DNA from: Vicinamibacteria bacterium
Lineage (GTDB): Bacteria > Acidobacteriota > Vicinamibacteria > Marinacidobacterales > Marinacidobacteraceae
DNA: 64,000 nucleotides
Direction of reading: 5' to 3'
Assembly: GCA_965199715.1 (NCBI GenBank)
Contig: CBDATA010000001.1
Coordinates: 64,001-128,000 of the forward strand
Position 1 is the first letter of the stretch. Every line of letters starts with the position of its first letter. Position numbers and translations under genes: made by a program. This document shows, one piece after another, positions 17,134-35,552 of this stretch. A model generated the notes under the pieces. The model did not search any database. It was not told the DNA's origin and saw only the letters and a program-made list of their open reading frames with translations.

Positions 17134-17166
17134 CGGGACGAGCGGATCGCGCCGGTCCACGGATCC

Positions 17167-17787
17167 ATGACCCAGGGGAAGCGGAACGCCTGCCTGCTCG
17201 GCAGCGCCGCCGGTCCGGAGGGGTTCCCGAACCCGGTCCTGCCGGAAGTGGCCTTCGTGGGGCGGTCGAACGTGGGCAAGTCCACGCTGCTGAACCGGCT
17301 GGCCGGACAGCGGGGACTGGCGCGGGTCTCGCGGACTCCCGGGCGCACGCGCCTCGTCCACTTTTTCGAAATCCCCGGCTCGCATCGCCTGGTGGACCTT
17401 CCGGGCTACGGCTTCGCCAAGGTTCCCGAAACCATGCGCGCGAGCTGGCGCAAGCTCGTGCTGTCGTACCTGGTCGGGCGGACCGGGCTCGCGCTCAGCT
17501 TGCTGCTCGTGGACCTGAGGCGCGACCCGGCGGACCTCGACCTGGCGGCGCTGGAGCTTCTTCGGCGCAGCGGCCATCCGGTCGCGATCGTCGCGACCAA
17601 GACCGACAAGCTGGGAGTCGGCGCGGCCTCGACCCGCCTGCGGAAGCTGCGGACGGAGCTCGGCGACGGCGGCAAGCGCCCGGTGATCGCGTGGTCGTCG
17701 GTCTCGAGGTCGCAGCACCCGGTCGCGCGCGGCGGGCTCGACGACATCCACCGGCTGATCTCGGGGAGGGTGGCCGCTTGGCGTTGA
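17167..17787 (+). CDS. engB: Ribosome biogenesis GTPase EngB/YihA
   Basis: PEVAFVGRSNVGKS, SRTPGRT, DLPGYG, TKTDK. Confidence 0.94.
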   Translation: MTQGKRNACLLGSAAGPEGFPNPVLPEVAFVGRSNVGKSTLLNRLAGQRGLARVSRTPGRTRLVHFFEIPGSHRLVDLPGYGFAKVPETMRASWRKLVLSYLVGRTGLALSLLLVDLRRDPADLDLAALELLRRSGHPVAIVATKTDKLGVGAASTRLRKLRTELGDGGKRPVIAWSSVSRSQHPVARGGLDDIHRLISGRVAAWR

Positions 17788-26325: not shown

Positions 26326-27117
26326 ATGTTCCCCCGCATCGTCGAATTCGGCGCGATCGAACTGTTCGGGCGAACGTTCGAGCCGGCGCTCAACACCTAC
26401 GGACTGCTGGTGGCGCTCGGTTTCCTCGCCGGGCTCTGGCTCGCCGGCAAGCGCGCCCACCTCTACGGCGTTCAGACGAAGGACGTGTACGACCTCGGCA
26501 TCTGGCTCATCGTGGGCGCGTTCGTCGGGGCCAAGATTCTCCTCATCCTCGTGGACCCGGAGGGGTTCCTCCGGAATCCGGCCGGCATCATCCGCTCGTT
26601 CGGCGTCTTTTTCGGCGGCTTCCTCGGGGCCGTCGTGGGAGCGATCTGGTTCTATGCGCGCCGTCGTATCAACGTCTTCGACGGGGGCGATCTCCTCGCT
26701 CCGTCGATCGCGCTCGGTCACGGCGTCGGCAGGCTCGGCTGCTTCGCCGCCGGGTGCTGCTACGGCCTGCCTCACGACGGGCCGGTCGCGGTCACGTTCA
26801 GCGATGTGCAGGCGAACGCCTTCACCGGCGTGCCGCTCGGAGTCGCACTCCACCCTACCCAGCTCTACGAGGCGGGCGTGGAGTTCGCGCTCGCCGGATT
26901 CCTCCTCTGGCTCGCGCCCCGGCGCAAGTTCAGGGGGCAGCTCTTCTTTACGTGGCTGGCGCTCTACGCGACGCTTCGATTCCTGCTCGAGTTCCTCCGG
27001 GGCGATCCCCGCGGCTTCGTGCTCGACGGGCTTTTCTCGACCTCCCAATTCCTGAGTCTCCTGCTTCTCCCGGCGGCGGTGATCCTGCTGCTGGCGCTGA
27101 GGCGGCGCCACGCCTGA
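26326..27117 (+). CDS. lgt: Prolipoprotein diacylglyceryl transferase
   Basis: YG, FFGG, GRLGCF.AGCCYG, HPTQLYE, RFLLEFLRGD, SQ. Confidence 0.93.
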   Translation: MFPRIVEFGAIELFGRTFEPALNTYGLLVALGFLAGLWLAGKRAHLYGVQTKDVYDLGIWLIVGAFVGAKILLILVDPEGFLRNPAGIIRSFGVFFGGFLGAVVGAIWFYARRRINVFDGGDLLAPSIALGHGVGRLGCFAAGCCYGLPHDGPVAVTFSDVQANAFTGVPLGVALHPTQLYEAGVEFALAGFLLWLAPRRKFRGQLFFTWLALYATLRFLLEFLRGDPRGFVLDGLFSTSQFLSLLLLPAAVILLLALRRRHA

Positions 27118-28096
27118 ACCGCCCGTTCCCGGCGCGGAACGAGAGTTCCGGGCGAGAGCCGAGGACGACGGCGTTCGGCTGGACCAAGCGGCGCTGCAGC
27201 GCCTCGAGGCGGTCACCCGCAGCGAGGTGGCCCGCTGGATCCGCGACGGCCGGGTGCTCGTGGACGGGAGACCCCGGCGGGCGAGCCATCGATGCCGGCC
27301 GGGCGAGCGCGTCCTGATTCGGGTTCCCGAAGTCTTCGGACCGATCGGGGAGGACGAACCGCCGGCGTCCGAGGCCATCCCGCTCCGAGTGCTCCGTGTG
27401 GACCCCTATCTTGTCGTCGTCGAGAAACCGGCCGGCCTCGTCACCCATCCGGGACCCGGCCACCGGAACGGAACGGTCGTGAACGCGCTCCTCCACCAGT
27501 TCCCCGAGATGCGCCGCGTGGGGCCGCCGGGCCGACCCGGAATCGTCCACCGGCTCGACCGAGGAACGTCCGGTGTCCTTCTCGCCGCCCGCACTGCGGC
27601 GGCGCACGCGGGACTCACCCGCGCCTTCGCCGAGCGCGAGGTCGAAAAGCGCTATCTGGCGCTCGTGCTCGGCCGATTCGAGGGCGAGCGGGTTATGGAC
27701 GCGCCGATCGGGCGCGATCCGAGGCGTCCGCAGCTCTTCCAGTGCGGCGGACGCGGGGCGCGGGAGGCGCGGACCACCGTGCGAGCGGTCGAGCCGCTCC
27801 CGCTCTCCACGCTGGTCGAGCTGGATCTCCACACCGGGCGTACCCATCAGGCGCGGGTGCACCTGGCGGGAGCCGGACACCCGGTCGCCGGAGACGCAGC
27901 CTACGGCCCGGGAGCGCCCCGGCGAGGCGGCGGACGCGCCGGGGCCATCCTCCGCCGGCTCGAGCGCCCGGCGCTCCACGCGCTGCGGATCTGCTTCCGC
28001 CACCCGGTGACCCGCCGCCGGGTCGAGGTGGAAGCGCCGCCGCCCGCGGACTTCGCGGCGGCCGTAACGGGGCTGCGGAACGCCGGGCTGACATAG
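27110..28096 (+). CDS. rluD: RluD-family 23S rRNA pseudouridine synthase; probable ACG start
   Basis: S4 domain GVRLDQ...TRS...IRDGRVLVDG begins upstream of first canonical start (GTG 27227); KPAGLVTHP, GIVHRLDRGTSG, TGRTHQ. Confidence 0.88.
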   Translation, partial: TPEPPVPGAEREFRARAEDDGVRLDQAALQRLEAVTRSEVARWIRDGRVLVDGRPRRASHRCRPGERVLIRVPEVFGPIGEDEPPASEAIPLRVLRVDPYLVVVEKPAGLVTHPGPGHRNGTVVNALLHQFPEMRRVGPPGRPGIVHRLDRGTSGVLLAARTAAAHAGLTRAFAEREVEKRYLALVLGRFEGERVMDAPIGRDPRRPQLFQCGGRGAREARTTVRAVEPLPLSTLVELDLHTGRTHQARVHLAGAGHPVAGDAAYGPGAPRRGGGRAGAILRRLERPALHALRICFRHPVTRRRVEVEAPPPADFAAAVTGLRNAGLT

Positions 28097-28108
28097 GATT
28101 CGCGCCCG

Positions 28109-28633
28109 ATGGACGGGCCGAGATTCGGCAGCGCGGAGCTCGAGTCCGCGCTTGACGCGATCGCCGACCGGATTCGTGCTTCCGGCCGCACCCCTCTCGC
28201 CATTCTGGGGATCCGGAAGCGCGGGGTTCCGCTCGCAGCCCGGCTGCGAGCGCGCCTTGAGCGGCGGGGGCTCGGCGAGATCCCGATGGGCGAGCTGGAC
28301 ATCAACCTGTACCGGGACGACATCTACGACCGGGGCGTGCCGCGGGTCCGGAAGACGAACATCCCGTTCCCGCTGGAGCGCTTCCACGTGCTCCTTGTGG
28401 ACGATGTGCTCCACACCGGAAGGACCATCCGGGCGGCGCTGACCGCGCTCACGAGCTTCGGCCGATCCCGGAGCGTGATGCTCGCCGCGCTCGTGGATCG
28501 AGGCGGCCGGGAGCTGCCGATCGCGGCGGACTTCGTGGGGCTCAGAGTGGAGGCGGCCCCGGGCGAACTCGTGCGCGTGCTCGTCGTTGAGGAGGACGGC
28601 GAGGACGGCGCCCGGATCCTCCCGCGCCCATGA
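28109..28633 (+). CDS. pyrR: Pyrimidine operon regulator / uracil phosphoribosyltransferase
   Basis: GIRKRGVPLA, LDINLYRDD, LVDDVLHTGRTIRAAL, DRGGRELPI.ADFVG. Confidence 0.93.
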   Translation: MDGPRFGSAELESALDAIADRIRASGRTPLAILGIRKRGVPLAARLRARLERRGLGEIPMGELDINLYRDDIYDRGVPRVRKTNIPFPLERFHVLLVDDVLHTGRTIRAALTALTSFGRSRSVMLAALVDRGGRELPIAADFVGLRVEAAPGELVRVLVVEEDGEDGARILPRP

Positions 28634-29568
28634 AGCACCTCCTCGGAATCCGCGGGCTCTCGGCCGAGGAGGCGCTTTCGATCCTTGACGAGGCCCCGCG
28701 CTACCGGGACGTGGCCGACCAGCCCGTGCCCCGCGTGCCCGCGCTCCAGGGGCGGACCGTCACCCACCTCTTCATCGAGCCCTCGACCCGCACGTTGGCC
28801 TCGTTCCAACTGGCGGCGCGGCGGCTCTCGGCGGAGCCGGTCGCCTTCACGCCCCGCGTCTCCTCGCTCGCCAAGGGCGAGAGCTTCCTCGACACGGCCC
28901 GTACGCTCGCCGCCATGGCGCCGGACATCCTCGTCGTCCGCAGCCCCGAGGCCGGGGCTCCCGAGGTCCTGGTCCGCGAGATCCCGACGGCGCAGGTCGT
29001 GAACGCGGGCGACGGGATCAACGAACACCCGACCCAGGCGCTGCTGGACGCCTTCACGATCCGCGAGCGCCGGGGCGGCCTCGCCGGACTCCGGGTGGCG
29101 ATCGTCGGAGATCTCCGCCACAGCCGGGTCTTCCGCTCGAACGCCCGGCTGCTGACGCTGCTGGGGGCCGAGGTGCGGGCGTGCGGGCCGCCGACGCTGG
29201 CGCCTCCGGGCCTCGAGGAGCTGGGAGTGATCCACTGTCCGAAGATGAACGACGCACTCCGGGGCGCGGATGCGGTGATGGCGCTTCGGCTCCAGCACGA
29301 GCGAATGCATGCCGCCTTCCTGCCGTCGCTTCGGGAGTACTACGACGAGTTCGCCATCACCGAGGAGCGCCTCCGCCACACGAACGATGCGATCGTCCTC
29401 CATCCGGGGCCGATGAACCGGGGCGTGGAGATCGAGTCGAGCGTGGCCGACGGCCCGAGGTCGGTGATCCTTGACCAAGTGCGCAACGGCGTGGCCATTC
29501 GCATGGCCGTGCTCGCCGCGCTGGCCCGCTCGCAGCCGCGCGGCGGCTGGAGGCGCTCCCGTGGCTGA
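28630..29568 (+). CDS. pyrB: Aspartate carbamoyltransferase catalytic subunit
   Basis: EPSTRT, KGESF.DT, NAGDG..EHPTQALLD, RLQHER, HPGPMNRGVEI. Confidence 0.96.
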   Translation: MKHLLGIRGLSAEEALSILDEAPRYRDVADQPVPRVPALQGRTVTHLFIEPSTRTLASFQLAARRLSAEPVAFTPRVSSLAKGESFLDTARTLAAMAPDILVVRSPEAGAPEVLVREIPTAQVVNAGDGINEHPTQALLDAFTIRERRGGLAGLRVAIVGDLRHSRVFRSNARLLTLLGAEVRACGPPTLAPPGLEELGVIHCPKMNDALRGADAVMALRLQHERMHAAFLPSLREYYDEFAITEERLRHTNDAIVLHPGPMNRGVEIESSVADGPRSVILDQVRNGVAIRMAVLAALARSQPRGGWRRSRG

Positions 29569-30856
29569 GGGCGCGGTCCTGATCCGGGGAGCGCGGATCG
29601 TGGACCCGGTGGCGAAGCGGGACGGAACACTTGATCTGCGACTCGTCGGAGGCAGGGTGGAGAGCGTCGGCGAACGGTTGGACGCCGACGGCGCGAAGGT
29701 GGTCGAGGCCGACGGGCTGGTCGCGGTTCCGGGACTCCTCGACATGCACGTCCACTTCCGGGAGCCCGGATTCGAGTTCAAGGAGACGGTCGCTTCGGGA
29801 GCGGCAGCGGCGGTCGCCGGCGGGTTCACGGCGGTCGCCTGCATGGCGAACACGGATCCGGTGAACGACAACCCGTCGGTGACCGCGCACATGCTCGAGC
29901 TCGCCGCCGCCGTCGGCCTCGCCCGGGTGCACCCGATCGCGGCCACGACCCAGGGCATGCGCGGCGAGCGGCTCACCGAGTTCGGGCGGCTGAAGAGGGC
30001 CGGGGCGGTCGCGGTCTCGGACGACGGACTCCCCATCGGAAACGCCGCGGTGATGCGCCGGGCGCTCGAGTACTCGCGCCTTTTCGACCTGCCGGTCATC
30101 GAGCACTGCGAGACGCTCGAGCTCACCGGCGACGGCGCGATGCGCGAGGGGGCGCTCTCCACGGCGCTCGGGATTCCGGGGATTCCCGGCGCTTCCGAGA
30201 GCATCGCGGTCGAGCGGAACACAGCGCTCGCGGGGTTGACCGGCGGGCGGCTCCACATCGCCCACCTCTCCACGGCAGCGTCGGTCGCCGCGGTGATTCG
30301 GGCCAGGAAGGCCGGCGTTCCGGTCACCTGCGAGGTCACGCCGCACCATCTGGTCCTGACCGAGGATGCGGTCGATTCCGAGGCCGGAGCCAACACCAAC
30401 GCCAAGATGAAGCCGCCGCTCGCGTCCGAAGCCGACCGGGCGGCGCTGACGGCGGCGCTCCAGGACGGTTTCGTGGACGCCATCGCGACCGACCACGCGC
30501 CGCACCACGAGGACGAGAAGCGCCTCTGCTTCGAGAGCGCGCCCTTCGGAATTGTTGGGCTGGAGACCGCGGTGCCGCTCGTGCTCGACCGGCTCGTGGC
30601 CCCCGGAGTCCTTTCGCTCGGCGGCGCGGTGCGGCTGCTTTCGGCGGGGCCGAACCGGATCCTCGGGTTGCCGGGCGGAACGCTCGCGCCGGGAAGCCCG
30701 GCGGACGTCACGCTGCTGGACCTCGAGGCGACGACCACCATGCGGCCGGACGCGTTTCGCAGCCGCGGCCGCAACACGCCCTTCAAGGGGCTGGAGCTGA
30801 AGGGGCGGGTCGCCGCCACGTGGGTCGGCGGGCGTCTGGTTTACTCCGCTGCGTGA
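29561..30856 (+). CDS. pyrC: Dihydroorotase
   Basis: DMHVHFREPG, MANT.P, EVTPHHL, KMKPPL, ATDHAPH, GLET. Confidence 0.95.
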   Translation: MAEGAVLIRGARIVDPVAKRDGTLDLRLVGGRVESVGERLDADGAKVVEADGLVAVPGLLDMHVHFREPGFEFKETVASGAAAAVAGGFTAVACMANTDPVNDNPSVTAHMLELAAAVGLARVHPIAATTQGMRGERLTEFGRLKRAGAVAVSDDGLPIGNAAVMRRALEYSRLFDLPVIEHCETLELTGDGAMREGALSTALGIPGIPGASESIAVERNTALAGLTGGRLHIAHLSTAASVAAVIRARKAGVPVTCEVTPHHLVLTEDAVDSEAGANTNAKMKPPLASEADRAALTAALQDGFVDAIATDHAPHHEDEKRLCFESAPFGIVGLETAVPLVLDRLVAPGVLSLGGAVRLLSAGPNRILGLPGGTLAPGSPADVTLLDLEATTTMRPDAFRSRGRNTPFKGLELKGRVAATWVGGRLVYSAA

Positions 30857-32313
30857 TCCTTCGCCTTCTGACCGCCGCGGCGCTCGCCGCTCCGCTCGCC
30901 GCCGCGCAGCCCGGCGTCCACAGCGCCGAGAGCGGCGGCGAGGTGCTGCGGCTGATCCGGAGGGAGAAGCTGGATCTGATCCTTCCGGGCGCGATGCGCG
31001 ACAACGGCGTGGACATGTGGATCCATGCGACCCGCCACGGCGACCCCGATCCGCTCGCCCACTACTTCGGGAACACGTGGGGCTGGCTCGTGTTCACCGA
31101 TCGCGGCGAACGGATCGAGCGGGCCGCTTTCGGAAGCGCGGGAGCCGTGGAAGGCATCGACGTGCGGGGATCGGACGCCTTCGCCCGCGCCATCTCCAGC
31201 TACGACCGCGGGTATCGCATGGCGTTCGGCTACGGCGACGAGGCGTATGACGAGTTCGCGGAGTTCGTTGCCGAACGGGATCCCGAGGTGATCGCGGTGA
31301 ACACGTCGGAATGGCTTGCCGAGGCCGACGGGATCTCCCATTCGGCTTGGGTGAAGCTGATGCGCGTGCTCGGCCCGGAATACGCCGGGCGCGTGGTTTC
31401 CGCGGAGAACGTCATCACGGACTTCGCCGTGCGGCGCACCGTGCGGGAGGTTGCCGAGCAGATCAACAATCTTGAGGCCGCCCGGCAACTTCAGTTGGCG
31501 GCGCTCCGGCGGATCGAGCCGAACCGCACCACGATCCGGGAGATCGTGACGTGGGCGCGGGAAGAGGCTTTCAAGCGCCACCTCGCCGGATTCGGGACCT
31601 TCGGGCGGGGCGGCGTCCGGGTGTACTACAGCGCAGTCTCGGAGGATCCCCCCTACCCGCCTTCGGTCCGCTACTGGGCGTGGCACGGCGACTACGTCCT
31701 GCAGCGCGGGGACTTCTTCGCGTTCAACGTGGGCGTCCGCTACATGGGCTTCACGACCGACACCAAGACCCACGCCTACATCCTGCGCGAGGGCGAGACC
31801 GCGCCTCCCGAGAGCATCCAGAAGGTCTTCGACCTCGGCGTGGCCGGGCAGGAGATCATGCGCCCGCACATGCGCGTGGGCATGACGGCGAAGGAGTCCC
31901 TCGACGCGATGGTGGCCGCGATGGAGGACGCCGGCTACATCTACACGCCATTCGTGAATTCCGGGATTCAGGGGGCCGGCCGGACACCGGACGGAGAGGC
32001 GATGATCGACTACGCGATGATTCAGGAGGCGCTCGGAGATACGGACCGCGTGGGATTCGCCATCGACAATCATGCTCACGGCTCGATCGGCACGACCACG
32101 CTCGGACCGTCCATGGCGAACTTTCGGGCCGATCGGCACCACCTCGTCATCCAGGAGAACCACATCTTCGCCTTCGAGTACATGGTCCACCGGAACATCC
32201 CGGAACGGCCCGGCTTGCCGCTCGCGATCAACATCTCGAATCCGCAGATCGTCACGGGCAAGGGCGTCGAGTGGCTCCAGCCGCCGAACGAACGGATCGT
32301 CCTGATCCACTGA
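30853..32313 (+). CDS. Secreted M24 (Xaa-Pro aminopeptidase-like) fold protein
   Basis: Signal peptide; ILPGAMRDNGVDMW, ERDP..IAVN, GDF...G.RY...TD, EY, C-terminal IVTGKGVEWL. Confidence 0.7.
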   Translation: MILRLLTAAALAAPLAAAQPGVHSAESGGEVLRLIRREKLDLILPGAMRDNGVDMWIHATRHGDPDPLAHYFGNTWGWLVFTDRGERIERAAFGSAGAVEGIDVRGSDAFARAISSYDRGYRMAFGYGDEAYDEFAEFVAERDPEVIAVNTSEWLAEADGISHSAWVKLMRVLGPEYAGRVVSAENVITDFAVRRTVREVAEQINNLEAARQLQLAALRRIEPNRTTIREIVTWAREEAFKRHLAGFGTFGRGGVRVYYSAVSEDPPYPPSVRYWAWHGDYVLQRGDFFAFNVGVRYMGFTTDTKTHAYILREGETAPPESIQKVFDLGVAGQEIMRPHMRVGMTAKESLDAMVAAMEDAGYIYTPFVNSGIQGAGRTPDGEAMIDYAMIQEALGDTDRVGFAIDNHAHGSIGTTTLGPSMANFRADRHHLVIQENHIFAFEYMVHRNIPERPGLPLAINISNPQIVTGKGVEWLQPPNERIVLIH

Positions 32314-32317
32314 TCCA

Positions 32318-33172
32318 GTGAGGCCGCCCCGGGGATGGCGGCGCGTCGTGCTGCGGGTCTCCGGACGCTACGGCCCGGACGCGCTCCAGAGCGACCCGCT
32401 GCGCTTCCCGCGCCGGTTCGCCGACCCGGAGGACCGGGAGACGGCGGCGTTCCTCGCGGCCGCGCTCGCGTTCGGGAACGCCCGCGCGGTGGGCGCTTCG
32501 CTCGAGCGCGTGTTCGCGTGGACCGGCCCGCATCCGGCGCGGTTCGTTCGTGGGTTGCCAGCGGATCCCGACGCCCGGCCGGCCGGATTCCGGCATCGCT
32601 GGACCTCATCGCTGGACCTCCTGCGGCTCGGCGTCATCCTCGGGCGCATCCGCCGCGATCACGGGAGCCTCGGGGCGCTGTTCGCAACGGGCGTCCGCCG
32701 CTCTCGGAGGATGCCCGATCTCCGGGGCGCGATCGACGCCTTCCGGGACGCCGCGCTCGCACGGGAACCGGCGGAGCTCGGCGCTCCCGACTCCCGACTC
32801 GCCTACTTCTTCCCGAGCCCCCGGACCTCAGCCGCCAAGCGCCCGCTGATGTTCCTGCGCTGGATGGTCCGTCCCGACGACGGTCTGGACCTCGGCCTCT
32901 GGGATTGTCTTGAGCCCCGGCATCTCATGGTTCCGCTGGACACGCACATGTTCCGCATCGCCCGGAGGCTGCGTCTGACCGGACGGCGGACCCCGGGGTG
33001 GGAGGCTGCGGCGGACCTCACCCGGGCGCTCGCCCGCATCGACCCTGCCGATCCCGTCCGCTTCGACTTCCCGCTCAGCCGCCTCGGGATCGTCGAGGGC
33101 TGCCCCGCTCATGCCCGAAGCGCACCGTGCGAACTGTGCCGGCTGCTCCGGGCGGGAGTCACCGGACCGTGA
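32318..33172 (+). CDS. TIGR02757/DUF2400 family protein
   Basis: SDP..FPRRF, AALAFGN, SAAKR..MFLRWMVR, DLGLW, PLDTH, DPVRFDF. Confidence 0.88.
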   Translation: MRPPRGWRRVVLRVSGRYGPDALQSDPLRFPRRFADPEDRETAAFLAAALAFGNARAVGASLERVFAWTGPHPARFVRGLPADPDARPAGFRHRWTSSLDLLRLGVILGRIRRDHGSLGALFATGVRRSRRMPDLRGAIDAFRDAALAREPAELGAPDSRLAYFFPSPRTSAAKRPLMFLRWMVRPDDGLDLGLWDCLEPRHLMVPLDTHMFRIARRLRLTGRRTPGWEAAADLTRALARIDPADPVRFDFPLSRLGIVEGCPAHARSAPCELCRLLRAGVTGP

Positions 33173-34694
33173 CCCGGGAGCGTTCGGTGAGCGTGCCCTG
33201 GGCGCGTTCGGCGGCGACGATGGCCTTCATGTAGTCGATCGTGGCCTGCAGCTCGTTGGCCCGAGCCTGCGCGAGGTCGCGCTGCGACTGGACGATGAAG
33301 TAGCTCGTCGTCATGCCCACCTCGAACTTCTTCTCCTCGGCGTCGAGGCGCTGCTCCTCCAGTTCCCGCGCTACCCGGCTGGCGTCGATCCGCCGGCGAT
33401 TGGTCTCCACCTGCCGGACGGCGGCGCGCACTTCCTGCGCCACGGCGATCTCCTGCACCCGGATCACGTCGCGCTGGCGGTTGAGGTCGATCTGCGCCTG
33501 CGCGTGGTTGATCGCGGCCTGGTCGTTTCCGAGCGGGAGGTTGAACGAGAGCCCGAGCTGCCAGTCGCGGTAGTCGAACCCGCCGAGCGCGCCGAGCGCG
33601 TCGCCATACCCGCCGGGGATCGTCTCGACGGTCCGCCCGAAGAAGCCCTCGCGCACCAGCTCGGTTCCGCCGACTCCGGTGAGCTGGTACGAGCCCACCA
33701 AGTCCACTTGCGGCAGCGTCTGGTTGCGGAAGAAGCGCACGTCGTACTCGTTCGAGTTCAACTGAAACTCCTGCGAGCGCAGCTCCGGCCGGCGGTCGAG
33801 CGCAACCCGGAGCGCGTCTTCCAGCTCGATCCGGTAGTCCTCGATGGCGGGAGCGTCGGTCGGCTGGATCTCGCCGTCCCAGAAGTCCGAAGCGCCGGGA
33901 TCCCGGATGAGCGCCTTCAGCGCGTCCTCGGTCGCGCGGATCTGCTCCTCGGCGAGGATCACCGCCTCCTCTCGGGTCGCGACCTCCGCCTCGGCCTGCA
34001 GCACGTCGATCGGCGCCATGGTCCCGACCTCGACCTGGACCTGGTTGTTCCGCAGGAGATCCCGGGCGAGCTCGACCGACTGGATCGCCACCTCGTGGTT
34101 CCGGATCGCGAAGACCAGGTCCCAGTAGGCGTTGTGGACGTCGCGCAGCACGTCGAGGACGCTCTGCTCGAAGTCCATCGCGCCCTGCCGCTCGCTGTTG
34201 CGGGTGATGGCGATCTGGCGGCGCTCGGGGCTCGACCCGAATCCTCGCAGCAGCGGCTGGGTGATCTGCGCGTTCAGCAGCGAGCGATACCTCGGGTTGA
34301 ACGTGGAGAAGGCGCTGTTCGTCGCGAACCGGTTGTTGAAGAACCCGATCGAGTAGCTCGCCCCGAACGGCAGGAGCTGCCCGAAGTTCAGGTTGTAGTT
34401 CATGTTGTCGCTCTCGTTCTGCATCGCCCCGTCGAGCTGGGTCGTGGAGGGGTTCACGCTGTTCTGGAGGTTGTAGTCGAGCCCCAGGTTCGGCAGGTAC
34501 GCGCTGCGGGCCGCCGAGTGGCCAAGGCCGAGCGACTGCTGCGACAGGCGCGAGATGCGCACGTTCAGGTTGTTCTCGAGCGCCTGGGCGATGGCGTCGT
34601 CGAGGCTCAGCCGGATCGGGGGCGGCTGCGCCGGCGCGGCGAGAGCGGGCGCGGCGAGCGCGGCGAGAAGCAGGATTCGGGTCAGGGTGCGCAT
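33159..34694 (-). CDS. TolC family outer membrane protein
   Basis: ATG 34694 with signal peptide; LSLDDAIAQALENN, TQPLLRGFG, AYWDL, EVG.MAPIDVLQAE, repeated half EVGMTT. Confidence 0.9.
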   Translation of the reverse strand: MRTLTRILLLAALAAPALAAPAQPPPIRLSLDDAIAQALENNLNVRISRLSQQSLGLGHSAARSAYLPNLGLDYNLQNSVNPSTTQLDGAMQNESDNMNYNLNFGQLLPFGASYSIGFFNNRFATNSAFSTFNPRYRSLLNAQITQPLLRGFGSSPERRQIAITRNSERQGAMDFEQSVLDVLRDVHNAYWDLVFAIRNHEVAIQSVELARDLLRNNQVQVEVGTMAPIDVLQAEAEVATREEAVILAEEQIRATEDALKALIRDPGASDFWDGEIQPTDAPAIEDYRIELEDALRVALDRRPELRSQEFQLNSNEYDVRFFRNQTLPQVDLVGSYQLTGVGGTELVREGFFGRTVETIPGGYGDALGALGGFDYRDWQLGLSFNLPLGNDQAAINHAQAQIDLNRQRDVIRVQEIAVAQEVRAAVRQVETNRRRIDASRVARELEEQRLDAEEKKFEVGMTTSYFIVQSQRDLAQARANELQATIDYMKAIVAAERAQGTLTERSRVTVR

Positions 34695-34778
34695 CGGGTT
34701 AGTTTCTCCACTGAGAGCAAACGGAAACGCTCGCTCGCGCGTTCCCTGCATGCAAGACGTTCTGCCGAGGAGGATTTC

Positions 34779-35552
34779 ACGGCCAACCAGCAACGAACCG
34801 GGCGCTTCCGGCTCACCCTCGCCTACGACGGGGCCGACTTCTCCGGTTGGCAGGCCCAACCCGGCAGGGTCACCGTCCAGTCGATCGTCGAGCGAGCGCT
34901 CGGCGACCTCTACCGGAGCCGGGAGCGCATCCGGGTGACCGCGGCGGGACGCACCGACGCCGGCGTGCACGCGGAGGGCCAGGTCGCCCACTTCGACGCT
35001 CCGTTCGGGATCCCGCCCGCCGGAGTGGTGGCCGGAATGAACGACCGGCTGCCGGAAGCCGTGCGGGTCCTCGCGGCCGCCTCGGCGCCGCCCGGCTTCC
35101 ACGCCCGCTTCGACGCGGTGGCCAAGACGTACCGCTACGACCTCCTGACCGGGGTCCCGGCCTCCCCGTTGCGGGCGCGCTACGCATGGGCGCTCCGGGA
35201 CCCGCTGGACGCCGGCGCCATGGCGGAGGCAGCCGGGGCCTTCGCCGGGGCGCACGACTTCCGGGCGTTCTTCGTCGCGCCGCCCGGCGAGGCCCCGAGC
35301 AGCCCGGTGCGCACGGTGCTTCAGGCGCGGCTCGACGCCTGCGGGGACCGCCTCCATTTCCGCGTGACCGCCGACGGCTTCCTGCGCTACATGGTGCGGC
35401 GCATGGTCGGAACGCTCGTCGCGGTCGGACGGGGACGGGTTCCGGCTTCGCGGGTCCGGGCGCTGCTCATGGACCCGGACGCGCCGGGACCGCGGTTCCG
35501 GGCGCCGGCGCGCGGCCTCCGCCTCGTCTCGGTCGCCTACCCGGAAAGGTAA
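34779..35552 (+). CDS. truA: tRNA pseudouridine(38-40) synthase; probable ACG start
   Basis: RLTLAYDGADFSGWQ.Q, AGRTDAGVHA.GQV, FHARF, G.HDF, GFLRYMVR, APARGL; SD GAGGAGG 34767-34773 then in-frame ACG. Confidence 0.9.
   Translation, partial: TANQQRTGRFRLTLAYDGADFSGWQAQPGRVTVQSIVERALGDLYRSRERIRVTAAGRTDAGVHAEGQVAHFDAPFGIPPAGVVAGMNDRLPEAVRVLAAASAPPGFHARFDAVAKTYRYDLLTGVPASPLRARYAWALRDPLDAGAMAEAAGAFAGAHDFRAFFVAPPGEAPSSPVRTVLQARLDACGDRLHFRVTADGFLRYMVRRMVGTLVAVGRGRVPASRVRALLMDPDAPGPRFRAPARGLRLVSVAYPER

Follow-up and report, generated by a model that had tools for sequence, protein, structure and literature searches.

The genes rluD and truA, which each encode a pseudouridine synthase, lie in a 64,000-nucleotide stretch of DNA from a Vicinamibacteria bacterium (the window, G000:C2:64001-128000), where both have kept intact coding frames and lost their canonical start codons (ATG, GTG or TTG). 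On balance it is probable from the sequence that both are initiated at the near-cognate codon ACG, a weak start that is rare in bacteria, aided by coupling to an upstream gene or by a strong Shine-Dalgarno site. The genome that contains the window (G000) comprises 2.66 Mb on two contigs and has a guanine-cytosine (GC) content of 71%. The sequencing runs containing the window are sponge metagenomes, and the relatives of this organism are named 'Candidatus Marinacidobacterium', sponge-associated Acidobacteriota of the class Vicinamibacteria. An earlier reading of the window (the original prediction) had proposed that rluD and truA start at ACG, and this codon is indeed the best start candidate in both, which are intact, conserved genes with no usable canonical start.

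The rluD start region

The rluD gene follows directly on lgt, and the features of this region, all on the plus strand, are:

26326..27117: lgt, the gene for prolipoprotein diacylglyceryl transferase, upstream of rluD (open reading frame; Pfam PF01790, E 3.6e-50)
27098..27100: TGA in the rluD frame, 4 codons before the ACG, identical in 4/4 genus loci (L004-L007)
27099..27102: GAGG, a Shine-Dalgarno-like core within lgt codons, 7 nucleotides 5' of the ACG, conserved in L004-L007
27110..27112: ACG, the proposed rluD start, within ACGCCTGA; the sole near-cognate codon between the TGA and the S4 domain
27110..28096: rluD-type 23S rRNA pseudouridine synthase gene, 328 codons plus stop (Pfam S4 and PseudoU_synth_2)
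27115-27117: TGA, the lgt stop, which ends a frame open for 264 codons
27227..27229: GTG, the first canonical in-frame codon of rluD, at residue 40 inside S4; not conserved

Counted from the ACG, RluD consists of an S4 domain (PF01479, residues 22-68, covering the full profile 1-48) followed by a PseudoU_synth_2 domain (PF00849, residues 100-253, E 8.6e-29), which is the architecture of RluD/RluA-type synthases. The translation also carries GIVHRLDRGTSG, a motif of the HRLD type which holds the catalytic Asp of these enzymes. Since the S4 domain occupies residues 22-68, the GTG at 27227, which lies 39 codons past the ACG, falls inside it, and no canonical start is compatible with the conserved N-terminal domain; the residue aligned to this GTG in the three congeners is I, L and L. 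The near-cognate codons ahead of the GTG are the ACG and two CTGs at 27179 and 27194, both of which are located inside S4, and reading of the sequence over the rluD start revealed no ATG, GTG or TTG in any frame from approximately 27083 to 27226. Re-reading of the sequence together with the Pfam assignments bears out the original description of this region, namely an in-frame stop at 27098-27100, the absence of ATG, GTG and TTG up to the GTG in S4, and a GAGG placed 7 nucleotides before the ACG. Canonical starts in G000 have Shine-Dalgarno spacings of 4-9 nucleotides, a range into which the 7 nucleotides at rluD and the 5 at truA both fall, and the 3' end of its 16S rRNA (GGATCACCTCCTTTCT) contains a canonical anti-Shine-Dalgarno sequence. 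Enrichment of four-letter Shine-Dalgarno matches is uninformative owing to a background of 15%. The protein initiated at the ACG is predicted to begin with (M)TPEPPVPGAER.

The sequence ACGCCTGA is present at the lgt stop in all four genus loci, where its TGA ends lgt frames of 264-278 codons; as this TGA closes the lgt frame, the ACG overlaps the lgt stop by 8 nucleotides. All four rluD loci of the genus read TGA GGC GSC GYC ACG CCT GA. The lgt-rluD arrangement is old because it is common to the genus, and a same-strand stop within a few nucleotides, kept in 4/4 genus loci, gives rluD the geometry of termination-reinitiation, which truA with its divergent neighbour does not share. The starts of rluD and truA were surveyed in 30 loci of relatives for each gene, including the genus loci L004-L007 for rluD and the congener loci L035-L037 for truA. 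A canonical start before the S4 domain is absent from five of the 30 rluD loci, those of the four genus species and that of G014, in which a CTG is located 1 nucleotide after the lgt stop. The sister genus starts rluD at a TTG seven codons upstream of the lgt stop, and in the present genus a TGA intervenes between that position and the ACG.

Comparison with the congener G003, of whose genome 87% was covered, shows that rluD codons 2-39 match at 18 positions, with synonymous changes at 11 and non-synonymous ones at 9; the base changes are spread 5/6/16 over the first, second and third codon positions. As the changes fall mostly at third positions (16/27), this segment is translated in the rluD frame. 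No promoter-like or terminator-like site was found between lgt and rluD, which is weak evidence either way. A fusion of Lgt to RluD through frameshifting at the lgt stop was considered and set aside, as inspection by eye revealed no slippery pairing at GCC TGA.

The truA gene and its leader

The truA gene has a divergent neighbour and no upstream partner, and its surroundings contain the following features:

34692..34694, minus strand: ATG of a divergently transcribed signal-peptide gene, which bounds the 84-nucleotide intergenic region upstream of truA
34723..34746, plus strand: GC-rich hairpin in the truA leader, the 3' end of which adjoins the CTG at 34746 (reported as a minus-strand stem-loop, whose bases can pair on the plus strand too)
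34746..34748, plus strand: CTG, an alternative in-frame near-cognate start of truA, without a Shine-Dalgarno site
34767..34773, plus strand: GAGGAGG Shine-Dalgarno site, present in this species only (absent at the aligned place in L035-L037)
34779..34781, plus strand: ACG, the proposed truA start, 5 nucleotides past the Shine-Dalgarno site; aligns with a non-start ACG in G002
34785..34787, plus strand: AAC in the column of the G002 ATG start (codons aligned with L037 by eye, without gaps)
34779..35552, plus strand: truA, tRNA pseudouridine 38-40 synthase gene (Pfam PF01416, E 1.1e-30, two stretches; GRTDAGVHA motif)

TruA has the PseudoU_synth_1 domains and the catalytic Asp motif of its family, which in TruA takes the form RTDxGVHA. 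The nearest in-frame canonical codon upstream of the ACG is a GTG at 34518, which is 87 codons away and inside the divergent neighbour, and the nearest one downstream is a GTG at 34935, which is 52 codons on and past the first conserved strand, so that truA, as originally described, is without a nearby canonical start and has GAGGAGG followed 5 nucleotides later by an in-frame ACG. The CTG at 34746 is the only other in-frame near-cognate codon in the 84-nucleotide region. TruA is predicted to begin with (M)TANQQR if initiated at the ACG and with (M)HAR if initiated at this CTG. A scan of the truA leader for promoter-like sites found none, which is again weak evidence either way.

Among the 30 truA loci the canonical start is absent from one, that of G000. 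All three congeners start truA at ATG, and the N-termini of G001 and G003 differ in length. Conservation of a near-cognate codon among the genus loci amounts to 4/4 for rluD, where lgt coding also constrains the bases, and to 1/4 for truA. The congener loci L035-L037 contain a GATACT or AATACT box 6-7 nucleotides before the ATG, which may represent the -10 element for an mRNA with a very short leader or none and which is absent in G000.

Sequence accuracy and RNA editing

The ACG codons are not a product of the assembly. Contigs of run X1, which stems from another study and has a depth of about 148, show 0 differences over 27000-35000, and contigs of run X8 from a third study show 0 differences over 27000-29588, leaving the truA site uncovered. 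Since these independent contigs are identical to the window, a consensus error, for which the original prediction had asked the reads to be checked, is ruled out. The contigs of RNA libraries have gaps; where they cover the sites, they read ACG with 0 differences at 27110 (X6) and at 34779 (X6 and X7), with C at 27111 and 34780 respectively. Majority C-to-U editing is thus not seen in the X6 and X7 contigs, in which minor variants would be hidden and which come from RNA libraries that may carry DNA, and the original view of such editing as the less likely alternative stands. A base-calling artefact in which methylation turns CATG into CACG was rejected, as CATG is not depleted (observed/expected 1.25).

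A mismatch was observed at window position 31523 (context CGAACC), where the X6 and X7 RNA contigs have G and the assembly and two DNA runs have A. This could reflect strain variation or A-to-I editing.

truB and other RNA-modification genes

G000 has four pseudouridine synthase genes, of which the second PF00849 gene starts at ATG. The truB gene (G000:C1:455461-456357, minus strand), which is located outside the window, lacks canonical codons over a span of 128 codons that leads up to a GTG within the conserved GLLLVDK motif. Two codons before this motif the sequence reads GGAGGAGG-CT-ACG, with GGAGG 5 nucleotides upstream of the ACG, and a CTG overlaps the stop of the preceding rbfA gene (CTGA). 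The predicted N-terminus of TruB is (M)LQGLLLVDK from the ACG and (M)TPSPEEATLQGLLLVDK from the CTGA. Outside the genus, 19 of 21 family loci have rbfA ending in a CTGA that is in frame with truB directly downstream, in 18 of them at the same position; the later GTG is absent in five loci, and 4/5 of these have the CTGA. On this evidence CTG is the start of truB in the family. The three congeners start truB at TTG, ATG and TTG.

A canonical start is missing in 3/4 pseudouridine synthase genes, compared with 0/7 of the other RNA-modification genes. The latter served as controls and comprise trmD, miaA, tgt, ksgA, mnmA and two SpoU-type genes, in all of which the expected N-terminus begins at ATG or GTG (7/7), the N-termini of the controls, of genes flagged by the gene caller and of their G003 orthologues being judged by eye. 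With truB lacking a canonical start and having GGAGG and an ACG, the tie to a single functional class is firmer than the original prediction could show. That prediction had also called for a genome scan for further ACG starts preceded by a Shine-Dalgarno site; truB is a candidate for such a start, and infC, which starts at ATC, is not.

Start codons across the genome

The gene set was obtained with a home-made, crude codon-usage gene caller, which yielded 2218 genes and on which all genome-wide counts rest. Genes without a canonical start were counted as follows:

No canonical start near the coding onset: 147/2218 genes in G000, 66/1875 in G003
Strict test (no such codon after the in-frame stop and a loss of 10 or more score units): 34 in G000, 12 in G003
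Close same-strand gene pairs without a canonical start: 67/1311 in G000, 29/767 in G003

Startless genes are hence roughly two to three times as frequent in G000 as in G003. Of 55 flagged genes which lost at least 8 score units, 30 had a G003 orthologue in the covered part, and judged by eye at least nine of these have an aligned canonical start in G003 and not in G000, while about seven have none in either genome. The starts of BLAST alignments were unusable for mapping orthologue starts, as the alignments extend into conserved upstream genes in another frame. The flagged list includes cases that are expected, namely infC, the prfB frameshift and about five selenoproteins. The infC gene (G000:C2, reverse-complement index 80911) starts at ATC with GGAGG plus 6 nucleotides upstream, and the same codon is used in G003. 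Near-cognate starts (CTG, ATC/ATT and ACG) occur in many unrelated genes of G000.

Unrelated startless genes often overlap the gene before them by CTGA or ACGNNTGA. CTGA overlaps number 24 among the startless pairs of G000, compared with approximately 11 expected, and an ACG stands 5 nucleotides before the upstream stop in 5/23 startless pairs of that frame, compared with a background of 3.3%. These five pairs involve rluD and genes for a SIS-domain protein, ATPase_gene1, a DcuC-like protein and a DUF4013 protein; the DcuC-like gene has ATG in G003, G008 and G014, with a different gene neighbourhood. A scan blind to function found GGAGG 3-10 nucleotides upstream at 17/556 ACG codons, compared with 1.9% for all codons, and of these 17 only those of truA (+5 codons) and truB (+3 codons) do not precede the predicted coding onset, which the next nearest precedes by 6 codons. 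Close same-strand pairs have a canonical NTGA overlap (ATGA, GTGA or TTGA) in 542/1311 cases, a share that seemed large, and in 30 cases a canonical start 5 nucleotides before the stop. Overlaps with CTG show the same theme elsewhere, as the rluD homologues of L118, L133 and L136 (Chloroflexota and Dormibacterota) are without a nearby canonical start and have a CTG that overlaps the lspA stop (CTGA).

Within the window, which holds 53 genes found by the caller, the flagged ones are rluD, truA and one marginal case (17137-17787, plus strand), in which the first canonical start comes 10 codons after the predicted coding onset and which is probably ordinary. The original statement that all other genes of the window have canonical starts therefore holds apart from this one flag. 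A TPR/signal-peptide gene that was considered as a conserved ACG start was rejected as a false positive of the caller, with an ATG 6 codons upstream. A number of short redox-type open reading frames run upstream through an in-frame TGA in a UxxC/CxxU-like arrangement which is conserved in G003. Examples are located on G000:C1 at 1969334, 637276, 363629 and 131301 on the plus strand and at 1772215 on the reverse complement. These are probably selenoproteins, since a tRNA-Sec gene is present in G000.

A proposed model for initiation at ACG

It is proposed that the ordinary initiator tRNA starts both rluD and truA at ACG, so that methionine would be the first residue. At rluD, the ribosome that ends lgt at the TGA would halt 5 nucleotides past the ACG and could restart there, aided by the GAGG 7 nucleotides upstream. 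At truA, which has no upstream partner gene, the strong Shine-Dalgarno site that is unique to this species would compensate from its position 5 nucleotides before the ACG. As a result these enzymes, of which few copies are needed, would be made in low yet sufficient amounts. The underlying process would be an erosion of ATG and TTG to ACG and CTG through T-to-C changes in a very GC-rich, reduced symbiont genome, in which an eroded start would be tolerated if coupling or a strong Shine-Dalgarno site makes up for it. Such erosion fits the 93% GC found at third codon positions of G000. The genes are not decaying, as RluD, TruA and TruB are 74%, 72% and 71% identical to their G003 orthologues, which is near the genome median of 74.3%, and the pattern looks like a genome-wide loosening of start-codon use and not like a proven control circuit.

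The tRNA set of G000 is ordinary and includes a normal initiator tRNA and an ordinary tRNA-Thr(CGU); no initiator tRNA with a CGU anticodon was found in it, and a special ACG-reading initiator tRNA was accordingly rejected. A defect in IF3 was likewise rejected, as the equivalents of E. coli Y75, R99, R131 and E134, which we take to be the fidelity residues of IF3, are conserved in G000, with one extra residue before R131.

Several points weigh against this model. Initiation at ACG is very weak in E. coli, where it reaches roughly 0.1-1% of AUG in reporter genes according to a preprint (10.1101/063800). The rluD ACG is conserved in part because lgt coding constrains it: the codon spans the lgt His-Ala codons cAC|Gcc, in which only the C is free, and CAC accounts for 85% of His codons, so that four C's would be found without selection about half the time. 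Four C's in four species are therefore no evidence of selection for ACG, and only show that the synonymous change which would create ATG was never fixed at rluD. The ACGs of truA and truB are single-species events, and truA could start at the CTG at 34746 instead. Pure drift does not easily explain the absence of canonical starts from 3/4 pseudouridine synthase genes and from none of the seven other RNA-modification genes. Finally, the crude caller gave at least one false 'no start', that of the TPR gene.

Alternative explanations

The alternative that survives best, and which is nonetheless rather unlikely, is that only rluD starts at ACG, with truA starting at the CTG at 34746 and truB at the ancestral CTG over the rbfA stop, so that the shared ACG would in part be a coincidence. 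CTG is the commoner near-cognate start in G000, as the 24 CTGA cases illustrate, the CTGA pattern of truB in the family is kept at the rbfA stop in G000, and GGAGG 5 nucleotides before a codon also arises from in-frame GAG codons in coding sequence. However, the CTG at 34746 is without a Shine-Dalgarno site and adjoins a hairpin, and the Shine-Dalgarno sites of truA and truB are both located downstream of the CTGs and 5 nucleotides before the ACGs.

A deliberate regulon, in which rluD, truA and truB are kept on ACG so that their output follows the stringency of initiation (the ratio of IF3 to ribosomes) or the modification state of ribosomes and tRNA, is less probable still. It draws on the three startless synthase genes, each of which has an ACG in frame that is supported by coupling or by a Shine-Dalgarno site, in contrast to the seven controls. 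With the best ACG candidates making up about 8/2218 genes, the chance of 3/4 is nominally about 1e-7, and it rises to about 1e-3 once the background is widened to all 147 flagged genes. The strong Shine-Dalgarno sites 5 nucleotides before the ACGs of truA and truB are peculiar to this species, so that expression appears to be maintained and not abandoned, and infC itself starts at ATC in G000. Against this, the ACGs of truA and truB are absent from all three congeners, which have ATG or TTG and hence no conserved circuit; truB may retain its ancestral CTGA start, the fourth synthase gene uses ATG, and the functional class was defined after the data had been seen. ACG-type starts are also found on the unrelated SIS, ATPase_gene1, DcuC-like and DUF4013 genes. 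The deliberate use of ACG that was originally proposed is accordingly not upheld: only the ACG of rluD is conserved, near-cognate starts are spread over many unrelated genes, and the rluD ACG is more simply explained by the overlap with the lgt stop than by a deliberate circuit.

It is very unlikely that the genes are silent or dying, with the start lost and pseudogenisation under way. G000 is the smallest genome of its genus, and its startless genes exceed those of G003 (34 vs 12 in the strict test), but the frames are unbroken and encode complete Pfam domains and the catalytic motifs, divergence from G003 is close to the genome median, and at rluD the ACG and an open, constrained frame are kept in four species. 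An assembly error, or C-to-U editing that restores AUG, can scarcely be credited given the X1 contigs at both sites, the X8 contigs at the rluD site, the C read by the RNA contigs with the limits noted above, and the presence of the rluD ACG in four separate genomes.

Relation to known systems

Among the closest known parallels is the AUU start codon of infC (and pcnB) in E. coli, which like the starts proposed here is a near-cognate start with a Shine-Dalgarno site on a translation-related gene. The autoregulation of infC depends on IF3. The infC gene of G000 has a near-cognate start as well, an ATC that is conserved in G003, whereas the codon at rluD and truA is ACG, which to our knowledge is not among the start codons of translation table 11. 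In plant organelles ACG starts are repaired by C-to-U editing, and ACG also serves as a start in viral and eukaryotic genes such as VP2 of adeno-associated virus (AAV). These cases share the codon at the start position with rluD and truA but belong to eukaryotic, organellar or viral systems, and unlike in organelles no U is seen in the RNA-library contigs of G000.

Coupling through overlapping stop and start codons (ATGA, ATGNNTGA), which operates by termination-reinitiation, resembles the same-strand overlap of 8 nucleotides between lgt and rluD, at which the proposed restart codon differs in being ACG (CTG in other G000 genes) and not ATG, GTG or TTG. Caliciviruses tolerate changed restart codons in termination-reinitiation, as described in PMC5972666; the literature search did not find a bacterial equivalent. 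In E. coli reporters ACG initiates with an N-terminal methionine detected by mass spectrometry, and the same preprint (Hecht et al., 10.1101/063800) also reports no ACG among the starts annotated in 79 model genome and plasmid sequences. Those reporters are artificial, whereas rluD is a conserved gene for which ACG is the predicted native start. The literature matches listed, which are viral, eukaryotic, organellar or engineered, include no native bacterial ACG start.

Significance

If rluD truly starts at ACG, it would represent a native bacterial ACG start that is conserved across species, of which the literature matches listed contain no case. Standard gene callers cannot annotate such a start and would either cut the S4 domain short or report the gene as defective, and the excess of startless genes relative to the congener has a bearing on the interpretation of protein N-termini and of pseudogene counts in metagenome-assembled genomes. 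The CTGA and ACGNNTGA overlaps suggest that stop-start coupling enables genomes of very high GC content to tolerate the erosion of their starts. The concentration of startless genes among the pseudouridine synthases provides a testable hypothesis on the control of RNA-modification enzymes, and were the regulon true, it would constitute a homeostatic loop for RNA modification that is analogous to the AUU start of infC.

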